64,000 bases of DNA from Candidatus Heimdallarchaeota archaeon (lineage in GTDB: Archaea; Asgardarchaeota; Heimdallarchaeia; Hodarchaeales; Hodarchaeaceae). This document shows positions 21,461-41,595 of this stretch, in pieces. Made by a program: the position numbers and the translations under genes. The first letter of the stretch is position 1, and each line of letters begins with the position of its first letter. The stretch covers positions 32,001 through 96,000 of the forward strand of contig DXJL01000156.1 in NCBI GenBank assembly GCA_019057635.1, in the 5' to 3' direction. The notes under the pieces were generated by a model. The model was not told the origin of the DNA, made no database searches, and saw nothing but the letters and a program-made list of their open reading frames with translations.

Positions 21461-22276
21461 TTACTTCCGTTTCTTCAATATTAAAGCATAATGGTGATGG
21501 ATATTGGAAACAAAACTATATGGATAGCCATACGGTCTCAAATTTTTCTGATTTTGTAACCAAATTCGTTCTCCCAAAAAGGAATACCATTTTGTTAGAC
21601 GTAGGGGGAGTTCGAAGGCGAGAGGTATCATTTCTCCCTTATCCCTGACATTTTGGATAAATACAATTAGATGGGCTTGGGGAAGTAATAGTTCATGAAT
21701 TTTAGTGAATATATCTACCAATTCATTTAGGAACTCTTCTTTTTCTTCTATCATTCCTAAATCAAGAGGATTTTGCCCATATTGGAGGTCGAGACCTTTT
21801 TCTAAGCGTTCTTGTTGATTATAATCTTTTTTTTTCTTTAATATTCGCCAATATGGAGGAGAGGTGATGCAAAGAGAAAAAGATTGTTTTTCTAAAGTGG
21901 GTAGAAGTATTCGGACATCACCTTCAAGAACAGGGAACTTTGTTCTAGATTTTGCAGTTTTAAAATACTTAGGATAAAGTTCTATACCGATACCCTTTCT
22001 TGCTGTGTTTTCACAGGCAACTAAAGTCGACCCTGTCCCCAAAAATGGATCTAGTACTATTTCACCAGGTTTCGTGAAAAATTCGATGAATTCTTCTATC
22101 ATAGAGGGAGGAAATGACGCAGGATGTAAATCAATCTCATGTGAAATGTCACTTGGTCTACCATCGGCTATAAACCAAGATTTTGTAAAACGAATCCACT
22201 CTTTCCCCGAGAGTGCGTTTAGCTTATTCCGAGGATCAATCTTTCCTGAATCTTTCATCACTATCCACTCTCTCAA
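21461..22276 (-). CDS. DNA methyltransferase (motif I before SPPY; probable m4C)
   Basis: HPA.FP, DPFLGTGST, ITSPPYW. Confidence 0.85.
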   Translation of the reverse strand: MREWIVMKDSGKIDPRNKLNALSGKEWIRFTKSWFIADGRPSDISHEIDLHPASFPPSMIEEFIEFFTKPGEIVLDPFLGTGSTLVACENTARKGIGIELYPKYFKTAKSRTKFPVLEGDVRILLPTLEKQSFSLCITSPPYWRILKKKKDYNQQERLEKGLDLQYGQNPLDLGMIEEKEEFLNELVDIFTKIHELLLPQAHLIVFIQNVRDKGEMIPLAFELPLRLTKWYSFLGERIWLQNQKNLRPYGYPYSFVSNIHHHYALILKKRK

Positions 22277-22326
22277 TCCATTTTTCTAAGTTAAAAATAT
22301 ATAATAAAAAGGTACGGTGAGGAATC

Positions 22327-22441
22327 ATGACTAAAATTGTCAGACAACTCTTGAAAACGAGTTCTGGACAGGATGAGTCACACATCCGCTATCCGGCAGG
22401 TTAGTAACACTAGAATGGATACTATCCGTTGGGACTACTTG
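22327..22441 (-). ncRNA. Predicted TnpB omegaRNA scaffold overlapping tnpB 3' end (guide about 22307-22326)
   Basis: GGAUG/CAUCC stem whose loop GUGACU can pair with terminal AGUCAU (pseudoknot). 34 nt are identical to 41269-41302. Confidence 0.75.
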
Positions 22442-23611
22442 GGAGTCTGTAGGATAACGTTGAAGAATATTCCGAGCCGCGTTATAATCGGCATTCAGAT
22501 GAACCCCGCACCTCTGACAACAAAAGGAACCTCGCGATGTTCGATTCCGCTTATCTACATGGCCACACTTACTACATTGTTGGGAGGTATACGCTTCGTC
22601 TACCCGTACTACGGTCATTCCAACAAGTTTAGCCTTGTATTCAAGCATTTGAACCAATTGGGAGAAGGGAAGTTGAATAAACGACTGATTTATCCGTTTT
22701 CCTAAGTTGCAGTGCTGTTTCCATCCCGCATTATAACCAATGACTAAGGTCTTTATCTTCTGCTCTAAACAGTAGTTGATTATTCGACGGGAGATTTGAT
22801 GGAAGATATCGTGGAGCTTATTAATCCGTCTACGATGTAGGCGTTGTATACGACGAGTAGTATACTGATGATTACAGATGGTGGCTAAGGATCGATAATG
22901 CGCAAGTTGCTTGTTATACCACTGATTAATGGTCTTAACTACCCCGCCTTTGACGAGTAAGCCGTCTGACGTAGTTACGAGATTGGTAAGACCGAGATCT
23001 ATTCCCATAGTTCGGGATGGAAAATCAGAGGAAGGAAATGGTTGCGCTTGTACTTCATAGAGTAATTCTACCACAAAGCGATCATAAAATGGCACTAACC
23101 GCGCCCCAACACATGCTTCCGCTGTCAATGGAAGAGAATCCAGGGGAAAGGTCGGAAACCCTCGTGCCATGAGATTTCGAGTAAATAGAATTTGGCTATT
23201 ACGGATTCGAACTCTGCGCCGGGGAAAGCTCAGCATATACATTCCGTTCTTGGGTTTATATCTAGGGGTTCGGGGGCGGGTTCGAAACCGGCCAGGATCC
23301 TTTTTCCAAACTTTCAGCGCGTTAAAAAAGCTGCGCCAAGTTTGTTCTACCTGTCGTAGGACCTGTTGGGGTAAATAGCTATCAGACATGTCTTTTAATG
23401 CTAGATACACTGGTTCGTGCTTGAGGCGATGATATAGGTTGGTATATTGGATCCATTTCCCTGTACTGAAAAATTCTTGTCGTACCTCATATGTCGCTCG
23501 ATTATAGAGATTTTTGGCACAGGTGCACAAATCGGTGAAAATTGGCCTAGGTTTCATTTGCATTCGGATAGCTAATTGGGGTTGAGGGTTTTTCTTGATA
23601 CGCATTCCCAT
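22340..23611 (-). CDS. tnpB: RNA-guided endonuclease TnpB with rearranged RuvC-II site
   Basis: AKNLYN, RuvC-I GIDLG, VIGYN..WKQ in place of the canonical Glu, VDEAYTSQQCSKCG, C..CG, NADYNAARNI. Confidence 0.95.
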   Translation of the reverse strand: MGMRIKKNPQPQLAIRMQMKPRPIFTDLCTCAKNLYNRATYEVRQEFFSTGKWIQYTNLYHRLKHEPVYLALKDMSDSYLPQQVLRQVEQTWRSFFNALKVWKKDPGRFRTRPRTPRYKPKNGMYMLSFPRRRVRIRNSQILFTRNLMARGFPTFPLDSLPLTAEACVGARLVPFYDRFVVELLYEVQAQPFPSSDFPSRTMGIDLGLTNLVTTSDGLLVKGGVVKTINQWYNKQLAHYRSLATICNHQYTTRRIQRLHRRRINKLHDIFHQISRRIINYCLEQKIKTLVIGYNAGWKQHCNLGKRINQSFIQLPFSQLVQMLEYKAKLVGMTVVRVDEAYTSQQCSKCGHVDKRNRTSRGSFCCQRCGVHLNADYNAARNILQRYPTDSQVVPTDSIHSSVTNLPDSGCVTHPVQNSFSRVV

Positions 23612-23630
23612 TCCTTTTTGGAATTTTCAC

Positions 23631-23645
23631 TCTTATAAACTTGAG
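23631..23645 (-). promoter_or_regulatory. Putative TATA box for tnpB
   Basis: TTTATAA (23633-23639, minus strand) about 25 nt upstream of ATG 23611, matching archaeal leaderless spacing. Confidence 0.5.
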
Positions 23646-23743
23646 ACAAAGAGAGAGCGGTGAAATTGATGAATGTGATGAAATTGAACCCTTTTTCTTC
23701 CCGACCAGTACTGATAAAAACTAGTGTTCTGACAAATTTGATC

Positions 23744-24391
23744 ATGCCTAAGATTCAGTGTATCATATTCGATGTGGATGGGACATTACTTGACAATACA
23801 AATTTTATAGTATCCCTATTTCAGGATACTGTAATAAAATATCTTGGACCAGCAAAAAGTATGTCTAGGAATGAAGTTTTGTCATTATGGGGTCCACCTG
23901 GAGATGAAATCTTTAGAAAAGTATTTCCACCCGAGGTAGTTGACGAAGCTTGGTCAGAATTTCTCATTAAGTATCGTAACACTCATACAAAAACGGGTTT
24001 TTTTTCTCGTGTGGAATTGAATGACTTTCGGAAATATGTTCAATATCTAGTAATTTTTACTGGTAAATCGCGTTATACTAATACCATCTCTTTGGAAGAA
24101 TTGGATATTACTGATTGTTTCGACCTTATCTATACTGGAAGTGATGTGGAAAATTCAAAACCCCATCCTGATGCACTGTTCCTTATATTAGAAGATTTAG
24201 ATCTGAATCCGGATAAAGTAATCTTTATTGGGGATAGCCATCTTGATATCATTGCAGGAAAGGCTGCAGGTATTCCAACCGCTGGGGCCGAATGGGGAGC
24301 AGTTGAGTTGGAAAAGCTCCTCCAAAGCAAGCCTGATCATGTTTTTAAGACCCCAAATGACTTTATCAAGTTCATAGAAAGCGCTTCATGA
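23744..24391 (+). CDS. HAD-superfamily hydrolase (phosphoglycolate phosphatase/PpaX-like)
   Basis: FDVDGTL, TGK, KPHP, IGDS..DI.AG. Start moved to ATG 23744 because the upstream extension lies inside the tnpB element. Confidence 0.9.
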   Translation: MPKIQCIIFDVDGTLLDNTNFIVSLFQDTVIKYLGPAKSMSRNEVLSLWGPPGDEIFRKVFPPEVVDEAWSEFLIKYRNTHTKTGFFSRVELNDFRKYVQYLVIFTGKSRYTNTISLEELDITDCFDLIYTGSDVENSKPHPDALFLILEDLDLNPDKVIFIGDSHLDIIAGKAAGIPTAGAEWGAVELEKLLQSKPDHVFKTPNDFIKFIESAS

Positions 24392-24406: not shown

Positions 24407-26551
24407 ATGACTAAAAAAATGATTGAAACCACTTTTCCAATCATTGAAATAAGTCAACTCGCCATACCTGAACGCAGCAGCTATAAACCTATTTATCAGA
24501 TTTCTAAATGGTTTGCCCGACGATCTTCGGCTATTTTTAGGGCCATTCTCCTTAGCTGTACTCTTAATTCATCAGAGAATTTCATGGACGAATTTTATAA
24601 TGCTAAGGATAGTTTCAAAGATATAACTATTCTTGATCCATTTATGGGAGGAGGAACAACAATTATAGAAGCTTTAAGGCTTGGTATGCAATGTATCGGA
24701 GTTGATATTAATCCAGTTGCATGGTTTATCACTAAAACTGAGAGTGCTATGGTCGATATAGAAGAACTTCAAGGTTTAATCACAAAATGTGAAGAAAACC
24801 TTGAAAATGATGTGAAAAAATGGTATAAAACCTCCTGTCCAGTATGTGAGAATCCCGCTGATATAATTTACACTCATTGGGTCAAATGCTTACCCTGTCC
24901 GACATGTAATTCACTCATCCCTATGTTTCGTAATTTTCTTGTCGGTTATTTGGCTAATGAGGCAATCCTTCTCTGTCCCTCATGTTATGCAGTATTTCCT
25001 TCAAATAAACCGATCACATCAGATAATAGATGTCCTGAATGTACTCAAAAATTCAAACCGAGTGCGGGTTTTAGAAAGGGTAGAAAATTGCTCGAATGTC
25101 CAGATTGTGGAAATTCTGTCAATATCTTAAACTCTATTCGTTCGATTAAGACTCCTCTCGCTTGCAAACCGTTTGCCATTGAAGGATATTGTTGTCACTG
25201 TGCAAATGAGAAAGATCCTGATTCAGACCTTGCAAAATCTAGATATAAATTTATCAAAAGAGTTTCACAAACAGACAGAGATCTTTATAAAAAGGCTGAA
25301 GATCACTGGAAGAATTATTCAGGCATCTTTCTTTGGCCAAAAGAAGATATCCCGATTGGCATGACAACAAAGGTTTTATTAAATCATAACTATACTAAAT
25401 GGGCTGACCTATTTACATACCGTCAATTATTAACTTTGAGTTTAATTTTAAACTTCATTAAAGACATTGAAGAAGAACATCTCCAAGAGATGTTTTTAGC
25501 GGCATTTCTAAACCTCTTAAATCACAACAATTCGTTTACAAGGTATTCTCCTAAAGGGCAAAAAGTCGAGGGGATATTTTCTCGCCATGATTTTCACCCT
25601 TTGTCTACATTTGCAGAAAATAATGTGTGGGGGACGAGATATGGACGTGGAACTTGGATCAAATGCCTCAAAAGATTACTAGAAGGGAAGAAGTACAACC
25701 TTGAACCCTATAATTTTACGTCTATAAATTCCAAAGAAAAGATCTCTAAGCGTCGAAGAATCGTATCTGGTAAAATTGATGGAAAAGTATACAATGGAGA
25801 AATTGAGCATTTTCCTGATGAAAAAAGTAATTTACTTCTTCTCTGTCAAGACTCTGAAAAACTTCCCTTGTTTACAAATGGCGTTGACCTTTTGATCTCT
25901 GATCCCCCGTATGCTGATAATGTAAATTATTCAGAACTATCTGATTTCTTATATGTTTGGATTCGATTAATATTACAGGAAAAATATCCCTTCTTTATTC
26001 CAGTTGAGACTCCAAAATTGGGAGAGGCAATTGAAACAAAAAATAGAGGTACTGATTACTATTCCAAACTCTTTAATATTTTTAGAAGCTGTAAGAAACA
26101 GCTCATCCCAGGTGGGTTGTTTGTATTTACATTTCATCATGGTAATCCTGATACTTGGTTTAAACTTGCTGAAGTAATTGAATCGTCTGGTTTTAGCGTG
26201 GTTAAAACGCATGTTTTGCAGAGTGAAGCCTTGAATGTTCTGAATATCCAAAATAAGAAAGCCGTGTCTTATGATTTAATTCTTGTCTGCCAGCAGAATC
26301 AACAAAAAAGGAAAAAACCCCATAATTTATCAGAATTTGTAGAACGGTTAAGCAAGAATTATGATAAGAAATTTACCTATTATACTGAGATAGGTCTCAC
26401 AATACATACAAATAATGTGATAGTTGTATTCTTTGGTGAATATTTGGAGCTTATTTCAAAGGTACAACCAGTAAACTGGTCAGACTCAATTGCTAAATCT
26501 GATCTAAGAAAAAGTTGTAAAGACCTTTACTCGAGTAAAATTATTGCCTGA
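24407..26551 (+). CDS. DUF1156-type adenine DNA methyltransferase with Zn-finger insertions
   Basis: KWFARR, DPFMGGGT, several CxxC pairs, SDPPY..N..Y.ELSDF, FTFHH. Confidence 0.88.
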   Translation: MTKKMIETTFPIIEISQLAIPERSSYKPIYQISKWFARRSSAIFRAILLSCTLNSSENFMDEFYNAKDSFKDITILDPFMGGGTTIIEALRLGMQCIGVDINPVAWFITKTESAMVDIEELQGLITKCEENLENDVKKWYKTSCPVCENPADIIYTHWVKCLPCPTCNSLIPMFRNFLVGYLANEAILLCPSCYAVFPSNKPITSDNRCPECTQKFKPSAGFRKGRKLLECPDCGNSVNILNSIRSIKTPLACKPFAIEGYCCHCANEKDPDSDLAKSRYKFIKRVSQTDRDLYKKAEDHWKNYSGIFLWPKEDIPIGMTTKVLLNHNYTKWADLFTYRQLLTLSLILNFIKDIEEEHLQEMFLAAFLNLLNHNNSFTRYSPKGQKVEGIFSRHDFHPLSTFAENNVWGTRYGRGTWIKCLKRLLEGKKYNLEPYNFTSINSKEKISKRRRIVSGKIDGKVYNGEIEHFPDEKSNLLLLCQDSEKLPLFTNGVDLLISDPPYADNVNYSELSDFLYVWIRLILQEKYPFFIPVETPKLGEAIETKNRGTDYYSKLFNIFRSCKKQLIPGGLFVFTFHHGNPDTWFKLAEVIESSGFSVVKTHVLQSEALNVLNIQNKKAVSYDLILVCQQNQQKRKKPHNLSEFVERLSKNYDKKFTYYTEIGLTIHTNNVIVVFFGEYLELISKVQPVNWSDSIAKSDLRKSCKDLYSSKIIA

Positions 26552-40819: not shown

Positions 40820-41047
40820 TTAATCGTCTTTTTTTAAGGATGAGGGTGGTTTACCATCTCTCCATTCGAGCTCGTGCTTGAGGAGATCTCGAATAGCCAT
40901 GCGTATTGCTTCAGATCGGGAGCTATAAACCCCTCCTCTAACTAATTCATCTAAATCCTCCAGAAAAGATTTAGGAGCTTTAAAACTAATTAACTTCACA
41001 AACTTCACATCTGTATTAGTTATTAATTGCATTGAATCAGTTAGCAC
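40820..41047 (-). CDS. Ribbon-helix-helix (CopG/Arc/MetJ) regulator
   Basis: ISFKAP....EDLDELV..G.YSSRSEAIRMAIRDLL. Confidence 0.9.
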   Translation of the reverse strand: MLTDSMQLITNTDVKFVKLISFKAPKSFLEDLDELVRGGVYSSRSEAIRMAIRDLLKHELEWRDGKPPSSLKKDD

Positions 41048-41232
41048 TCATTATTTGTGGAGTTAACCACTCTGAATTAATTAATAAACAAGAACTAAAC
41101 CCGATTCGAGTAATAAAAATCGCGAATATGGAGGTTAATATTGTTAGCTCAAATATCGTTGATATCATGAAAGGTCATTTTCACAACAATAGCAAACTTG
41201 TTTGTGTTTTTGGATTAGGTTGATATTTCATT

Positions 41233-41595
41233 CATGACTATATTTGTCAGACAACGCAGTAGAACCACGTTCTGGACAGGATGAGTCACACATCCGCTAT
41301 CCAGAAAAAACCAATTCAGCTGGTGAATTCGTTTTCGAGGGACTACTTGTTACAATCGGGTTGGCATTCTCTCTTGATTCCTCGAATTTCAAAAACTACT
41401 GGCCTTACCCCCCTCACCTTTGACGGGTAACTCGTCTAACGTAGTTACGAGGGAGGTACTCCAAAAATTTTGAGTACTTTTCTGTTCATCACCTCCGATT
41501 CTTAAGACTTCAAGGGGAGGAAGTCCTTTTAAGGCTTTCAGAGACAGAGTGAGGTGAAAATGAGCTTGTAAATTTGTCTGATAAATTGGATCATG
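41233..41595 (-). mobile_element. MITE-like deletion derivative of the tnpB element (355 bp between CATG repeats)
   Basis: Both ends match the 22326-23746 element (left end 18/20). Also a 34-nt identical omegaRNA core and a 31/35 match (41417-41451) to tnpB CDS 22947-22981. Confidence 0.85.
41234..41349 (-). ncRNA. Second omegaRNA scaffold within the MITE (guide about 41214-41233)
   Basis: Conserved CAAGUAGUCCC, GGAUG/CAUCC stem and AGUCAU end; the variable stem differs in sequence but still pairs. Confidence 0.7.

Follow-up and report, generated by a model that had tools for sequence, protein, structure and literature searches.

Within the OMEGA systems, stand-alone omegaRNAs have been described that are mobilised, lack an effector and work in trans (Altae-Tran et al. 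2021, summarised in PMC10691335). For Geobacillus stearothermophilus, a preprint notes minimal, PATE-like elements in which an omegaRNA is often encoded (Meers et al. 2023, PMC10055086), and the PATEs of Haloquadratum are reported to arise from the TnpB-only element ISHwa23 by repeat-mediated deletion of its core (PMC3119063). The guide scaffold of ISDra2 comprises 116 nt and has a pseudoknot that involves the bases just 5' of its guide (PMC10097598). A link to IS630-type DDE transposases has furthermore been described for TnpB elements whose ends are symmetrical (PMC10691335).

We analysed a 64,000-nt stretch of contig DXJL01000156.1 of a Candidatus Heimdallarchaeota archaeon (hereafter the window), in which positions 41233..41595 hold a short element that we read, with a probability of roughly 0.6, as a MITE/PATE-type derivative of a TnpB-only insertion sequence that would supply a flank-derived guide to TnpB in trans. 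Like the stand-alone omegaRNAs of the OMEGA summary, it is a guide locus without effector or transposase in a genome that also holds effector-bearing copies; unlike them, it belongs to an Asgard host, keeps the promoter region of its parent, possesses a second conserved hairpin and is known here from sequence alone. It shares with the G. stearothermophilus PATEs, as the preprint presents them, the lack of a protein, the ends of a tnpB element and a proposed need for TnpB in trans. However, those PATEs belong to the IS200/IS605 group, in which the Y1 TnpA has been identified and the ends are asymmetric, whereas here we find a 22-nt inverted repeat, a palindromic CATG and no Y1 TnpA. As in the published Haloquadratum case, an archaeal TnpB-only element has been shortened, and 33-nt mini-elements with fused ends in our genome look like products of the same process; in contrast with such fused ends, the 355-nt element retains four separate internal pieces.

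The resemblance to ISDra2 as described lies in a scaffold of ~116 nt that overlaps the 3' end of tnpB, contains several stems and would place pseudoknot bases next to the guide, and the layout of the MITE scaffold thus fits the family. The pseudoknot partner would differ, being a hairpin loop ~50 nt upstream in our element and a segment near the 5' end in ISDra2, and the two RNAs share no sequence similarity. Judged by these accounts, the use of a stand-alone omegaRNA in trans is an idea already in print, so the value of the present case is that of a well-characterised example rather than of a discovery. What is less ordinary is the combination of symmetrical ends and a CATG target without a visible transposase, together with a frozen central hairpin. 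We found no description of elements of this kind in Asgard archaea in the literature searched.

Anatomy of the element and its parent

The element runs from CATG (41592-41595) to CATG (41233-41236) on the minus strand, which is the sense strand for both omegaRNA and tnpB, and measures 363 nt including the CATGs and 355 nt between them. Its edges coincide exactly with the breakpoint of an empty site in a sister genome (G002:C23). The first-pass annotation had described a 355-bp element with both ends but no tnpB ORF, and the CATG bounds, the list of open reading frames and the Pfam search all bear this out: the sole ORF of at least 50 aa inside the element is an antisense frame of 59 aa (41244..41423) without a Pfam match. 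Scans of the window with Rfam (at gathering thresholds) and for tRNAs returned nothing.

The window also contains a full-length, parent-type element of 1421 nt, again running from CATG to CATG on the minus strand (22326..23746). Its tnpB gene, 22340..23611(-), encodes a 423-aa TnpB with matches to PF01385 (OrfB_IS605, E 6.6e-21) and PF07282 (Cas12f1-like TNB, E 4.1e-25) and to solved structures of TnpB and Cas12f, including ISDra2 TnpB (8exa/8h1j, E 7e-11). The protein carries GIDLG, VDEAYTS and NADYNAA, which we take to be the RuvC catalytic motifs, and its close relatives (67-82% identity) come from MAGs that bear the titles Heimdallarchaeota B3_Heim and Hodarchaeota. The ORFs that flank this full element, at 21461-22276(-) and 24407-26551(+), contain SPPY and DPPY motifs, presumably those typical of DNA methyltransferases.

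Aligned to full copies, the short element consists of several retained parts, all on the minus strand. The left-end terminal repeat CATGATCCAATTTATCAGACAA (41574..41595), which is inverted relative to that of the right end, is followed by a 44-nt gap relative to the full copies. Next come the tnpB promoter region, with a TATA-like CTTAAAAGG at 41525..41533 that corresponds in the alignment to the CTTATAAGAG box lying ~29 nt ahead of the ATG of tnpB in full copies, and the start-codon region, in which GGAGGTGATGA aligns to GGAATGGGAATGCGT. A piece of the tnpB centre includes a 45-nt block whose conserved hairpin (41411..41453) is homologous to tnpB codons ~210-228 (window 22927-22981), and the final ~116 nt extend from CAAGUAGUCCC to the right repeat. 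In BLAST against the full copy, the right end scored E 1.5e-18 and the central piece E 3e-8 (80% identity), a similarity far beyond chance. By these alignments, 41233-41595 is a protein-less deletion derivative of a TnpB-only insertion sequence.

The annotation had also read a BRE/TATA-like GAAAGCCTTAAAAG at 41526-41539 of the minus strand. This sequence is present, and its TATA-like part is almost invariant across both MITE subfamilies described below, but the purine-rich BRE is not conserved between them. We take CTTAAAAGG to be part of a putative promoter.

The genome (3.19 Mb in 214 contigs, 91.6% complete) has a gene for TBP, as expected of an archaeon, and holds 38 copies of the right end. 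At least 100 residues of TnpB lie upstream in 10 of these, and the other 28 are preceded by a remnant of at most 45 residues. Complete protein-less copies number 16, are 353-363 nt long and form two subfamilies, A, to which the window copy belongs, and B, which are homologous over their full length yet only 33-59% identical over most of it. The congener G002 has at least six subfamily A copies, six of which were aligned. A covariance model of the copies, as the annotation had proposed, was built from 48 of them and found 42 matches in this genome (one of which, G000:C133:73232-73366, scores 135.5 bits), 37 in G002, 20 in G031, 11 in G018, 6 in G004 and one each in three other genomes, so that 8 of the 22 genomes of the genus contain matches. 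Four stop-free tnpB genes of the clade are present in our genome (on C133, C152, C72 and C35), in addition to two with stops and one that is truncated. These counts support the presence of intact-looking genes whose product could act in trans.

Small proteins encoded on the sense strand were considered and rejected. Frames of up to 105 codons exist in some subfamily B copies, and some subfamily A copies are open for 68-80 codons; no start codon lies in frame with them and other copies interrupt them, and we regard them as non-coding. In two subfamily B MITEs, L088 (C89) and L071 (C30), the sense frames cross remnants of the middle and C-terminus of TnpB. An ATG after the GGAGGTGAT block opens just 9-14 codons and is not conserved in the alignment, and it was likewise read as non-coding.

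Ends, target site and search for a transposase

MITEs and full copies alike carry the 22-nt repeat CATGA[TC/CT]AAATTTGTCNGACAA at both ends, and the motif occurs 96 times in the genome at up to 4 mismatches. TTGTCNGACAA palindromes lie within both ends, and CATG is present at 31 of 38 right ends and at 18 of 22 left flanks. In G002, whose flanks are 95-97% identical to those of the window element, the element is absent and a single CACG stands in place of CATG-element-CATG; since this site is empty in the sister genome, the window insertion is recent. A comparison within the assembly gave the same picture, with C199 empty and holding one CATG and C194 filled and holding a CATG on each side. 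These filled and empty patterns could equally result from a duplication of 2 or 4 bp, from a crossover core located within CATG, or from a CATG target combined with an element that itself ends in CATG. Three further filled/empty comparisons with G002 involve sites too rearranged to fix the ends.

Two copies are common to this genome and G002, indicating that they predate the split of the two. At one site, the copy present here (L126:1500-1870) is a subfamily A MITE and the one in G002 (L151, C8:18880-19245) belongs to subfamily B and points the other way, with both elements located between CAT(G/A) and CATG; this arrangement reflects either independent insertions at one CATG or a replacement. 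In four metagenome runs, one of them possibly that from which the assembly was made, contigs span either the one or the other junction of the window insertion, and no contig in these four runs joins across the empty window site. The 33-nt mini-elements, in which the end repeats are ~30 nt apart and overlap at TTGTCNGACAA, were seen at G000:C84:3071-3103, C104:23050-23082, C152:1633-1665 and C13:2402-2451. The protein-less elements are short and non-coding, share inverted repeats with a longer parent, are present in many copies and are polymorphic for insertion, which are traits of MITEs.

No gene for a matching transposase was found. The genome, at 91.6% completeness, yielded no match to a Y1 transposase; the genes located between matching ends anywhere in the genome are tnpB alone; and the full copies of the CATG family contain no TnpA. 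Y1 genes are present in 2 of the 22 genomes of the genus, where they lie beside unrelated TnpBs (28% and 43% identical) and without these ends. IS607 elements have a serine-recombinase TnpA upstream of tnpB and ends that share a crossover dinucleotide. Two pairs of an IS607-type serine TnpA with a TnpB exist in our genome (C54 and C56), and their ends are unlike those of the CATG family. Of the IS607-type pairs at L153:793-2585 and L152:1185-3286, one has an unusually long TnpB of 532 aa, and the TnpB of the other (402 aa) has a second copy on C163 without a recombinase. When the flanks of 29 loci of TnpB relatives (25 more distant, 4 close Asgard) were inspected, we saw one resolvase and two Y1 genes, all three at the 25 more distant loci, with the rest being solo.

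Elements of the IS200/IS605 family insert 3' of a short target without duplicating it and have subterminal hairpins and no inverted terminal repeats. The palindromes near both ends, and empty sites that fit a CATG target plus an element-borne CATG, are compatible with this pattern; the 22-nt inverted repeat at the ends is not. IS630 elements target TA. The element resembles the IS630-linked TnpB elements, as these are summarised in the literature, in having inverted-repeat ends around tnpB and a palindromic tetranucleotide target; it differs from them in that DDE_3 was not found in this genome and in that its flanks are CATG rather than TA.

Structure and covariation of the guide scaffold

The putative omegaRNA scaffold of ~113-116 nt (41237..41349, minus strand) was delimited by alignment, pair counts and the covariance model. 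It comprises, in order, CAAGUAGUCCC, a mid stem, a GGAUG/CAUCC hairpin, a variable right-end stem and AGUCAU. A 34-nt core at 41269..41302, containing the hairpin GGAUG-UGUGACU-CAUCC with its loop GUGACU (41284-41289), is identical to the full copy on the minus strand, as the annotation had stated and the alignment confirms. The variable right-end stem-loop AACGUGG-UUCUA-CUGCGUU occupies 41253..41271, and AGUCAU, the complement of the loop GUGACU, lies at 41234..41239 as a proposed pseudoknot strand directly 5' of the guide.

We assessed a structure model of six helices, one being the proposed pseudoknot, on the alignment of 48 copies. Pairing was possible in 92.0% of 1760 cells. Shifting the partners by 1-3 columns reduced this to 32-45%, and column shuffles gave 82.2%, with 0/500 of them reaching the observed value. 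Changes on both sides of a pair were found in 191 cells, compared with 80 +/- 7 in shuffles (0/500 reaching the observed number) and 37-81 in slid registers, although the copies are related by ancestry and these cell counts therefore exceed the number of independent events. Double changes occurred in 16 of 37 pairs, namely in all 7 of the mid stem, in both (2/2) of the GC/AU extension and in the right-end stem, where the four inner pairs (columns 130-134 with 141-144) showed 12-20 double changes per pair among the 48 copies. Compensatory changes are thus seen in three scaffold stems, and G-U pairs are confined to the sense strand. The mid stem of the MITE, AAUUCA/UGAAUU, differs in sequence from AGUAAC/GUUACU in the tnpB copies yet keeps its register with no coding constraint left, and the right-end stem reads AACGUGG/CUGCGUU in the MITE versus AACUC/GAGUU in the full copy. 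Both versions of this stem, and the wider claim of a structure conserved through compensatory change, had been put forward in the annotation and hold up in the 48-copy counts.

The annotation had further proposed a pseudoknot between the loop and the end of the scaffold. GUGACU and AGUCAU are indeed present in both MITE and full copy, and 98.6% of their cells are paired, but within the family the changes are one-sided and wobble-compatible, with zero double changes. The GGAUG/CAUCC hairpin behaves in a similar manner (97.1% paired), its changes being one-sided only and always to wobble. Thus, both hairpin and pseudoknot are compatible with the model rather than proven by covariation. In an IS607-type element of this genome with a TnpB of 38-41% identity, the hairpin reads GGAUG-UAGGGUUA-CAUCC, and its pre-flank bases UAACCUA again match its loop, as judged by eye on two copies; this single by-eye comparison is the sole covariation support for the pseudoknot.

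Conservation is concentrated in the same region. Between subfamilies A and B, identity reaches 0.89 in the scaffold core and 0.91 at the right end, compared with 0.33-0.59 for most of the remainder. In full copies, the scaffold overlaps tnpB codons ~385-423, the stop codon lying 19 nt before the element end, and third-position identity in the overlapping codons is 0.96-1.0 versus 0.56-0.85 over most of tnpB. Since subfamily A has lost the coding sequence and kept the structure, these data argue for a constraint on the nucleic acid itself.

Such a constraint might act on DNA, with the right end being conserved solely as a cis substrate for a transposase, through binding sites or single-strand hairpins, and with no functional RNA being made. 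The ends are after all the best-conserved parts, both contain TTGTCNGACAA palindromes, and compensatory stems would also be expected of DNA hairpins of the IS200/IS605 type. However, conservation and covariation extend ~116 nt inward, far past the 22-nt repeat, and the stem sequences vary freely among copies that must all rely on one transposase, unlike a hairpin that is read by a protein. Moreover, the invariant core GGAUAG.GGAUG-loop-CAUCC resembles that of the IS607-type element with the 38-41% identical TnpB, the promoter and start region have been kept as well, and no Y1 was found in the genome. The lack of per-locus constraint in the orthologous pair described next would suit a cis-DNA role, but with these points combined we consider this explanation unlikely.

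Constraint at an individual locus was gauged on one orthologous pair. Between C82 and G002 L119, the scaffold differs at 13/126 positions and the remainder at 29/239, and one change breaks a stem pair, so this single pair gives no clear per-locus constraint on the scaffold. An inserted copy therefore seems to drift, which fits selection on a spreading element rather than on a host function.

Two further observations weigh against the model. Folded as a single sequence, the MITE scaffold pairs alternatively, and the z scores are modest (-2.4, and -1.1 for the full copy). In addition, six to seven consecutive Ts separate the mid stem from GGAUAG within the subfamily A scaffold. At window 41303-41310, this U6-7 run replaces AACCUGCC of the parent and pairs with an upstream GAAAA. 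Such a run could end archaeal transcription ahead of the guide; a T5 also lies in the right-end loop of full copies.

Guide, neighbouring genes and possible use in trans

The 20 nt readable as the guide (41213..41232, minus strand) adjoin the right end, and the flank reads as the second guide that the annotation had proposed. No two copies have the same guide flank, and each flank occurs once in the genome save for contig duplicates and one paralogous empty site. The search suggested for the window guide did not reveal another target: at up to 2 mismatches, it matched its own flank only in the genome, and it had no exact match in the viral contigs. Compared with the empty G002 site, the guide is the same apart from one inserted base.

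In the reading that we favour, two or three internal deletions would have removed the tnpB frame and left the ends, the promoter/start region, the 45-nt hairpin and the full scaffold in place. The retained promoter would then give rise to a transcript through the scaffold into the flank, the guide of the resulting omegaRNA would be the DNA adjoining the right end, and TnpB from a stop-free full copy would bind this MITE omegaRNA in trans. According to the published homing model, excision would leave CATG plus the right flank, and the complex may cut this CATG-adjacent empty site after excision or, alternatively, an element-free homologue. Repair from an element-holding copy would restore the element, such that the MITE would borrow the retention mechanism of its parent. 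The sequence data establish the anatomy of the element, its homology to the parent, the conserved structure, the copy numbers, the recent insertion and the CATG target, and transcription, TnpB loading, the TAM, cleavage and the choice of mobilising enzyme are the inferred parts of this scheme. Because a kept promoter and scaffold would let a MITE use the TnpB of another copy, guide supply in trans would explain which parts have been retained in the lineages that spread.

The orphan scaffolds could instead serve as decoys or regulators that sequester TnpB or direct it to sites where it does no harm, thereby limiting damage by the nuclease, and their excess over stop-free tnpB genes (~7:1 in this genome) is what one would look for in that case. 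Yet each guide matches its own flank only, as expected of by-products of insertion, and we regard a decoy role as extremely improbable.

The element sits in a divergent intergenic region between genes at 41047(-) and 41703(+), 186 nt from the start of the RHH gene; a coiled-coil ORF begins ~107 nt away on the opposite strand. The annotation had placed it about 190 nt upstream of an RHH-RCK operon on the same strand. The distance (186 nt from 41047) and the orientation stand, but the RCK label is weak, since the TrkA_C match scores 21.1 bits, under the Pfam cut-off of 27. An effect of the MITE on the RHH operon is possible, as suggested by position alone.

A stronger version of this idea is that the insertion matters mainly as a mobile promoter or insulator, either because transcription from the retained tnpB promoter passes the right end and enters the RHH operon or because the insertion splits a divergent promoter region. 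Besides the location upstream of the RHH start and between divergent genes, the conserved TATA-like box and the junctions bridged in four metagenome runs, which suggest that the insertion is kept in populations, would be in keeping with such a role. The sister genome, however, has the operon and the 186 nt upstream of it without the element, indicating that the operon needs no element, and the fact that the scaffold is the most conserved part would be left unexplained. We therefore hold this explanation to be very doubtful, while noting that it is compatible with guide supply in trans and does not exclude it.

Both MITE subfamilies also retain the 45-nt central block. Here A and B reach an identity of 0.81, versus 0.33-0.59 in most of the remainder. 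Ten tnpB genes with 75-81% identity elsewhere hardly vary in this block, with a third-position identity of 0.98 in tnpB codons 217-228. Among 40 distinct sequences, two outer pairs of its hairpin switch, one between CG (26) and UA (12) and the other between CG (22) and AU (13), and these switches split the tnpB genes, subfamily A and subfamily B. Roughly 0.9 of the outer-stem cells are paired, versus 0.54-0.67 in slid registers. With two covarying pairs and only three lineages, the evidence for this hairpin is suggestive.

The symmetrical 22-nt ends, the use of CATG in either orientation, the occupation of one site by different subfamilies and the dozens of copies for which no matching transposase was found lead us to a further, decidedly speculative and rather improbable proposal, namely that the frozen central hairpin may be a cis-acting or RNA module for omegaRNA biogenesis or for an unrecognised movement of TnpB-only elements. 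In that case, describing the family as a passenger of TnpB that carries orphan guides would fall short.

Our analysis shows that Heimdall-group Asgard archaea, too, contain protein-less elements with orphan TnpB guide scaffolds and that these spread there, being several-fold more numerous than the nuclease genes. Exact ends, a CATG target and empty sites are now given for a TnpB-only family, and the central hairpin, frozen at synonymous sites and present in all MITE lineages, provides a concrete, testable lead.
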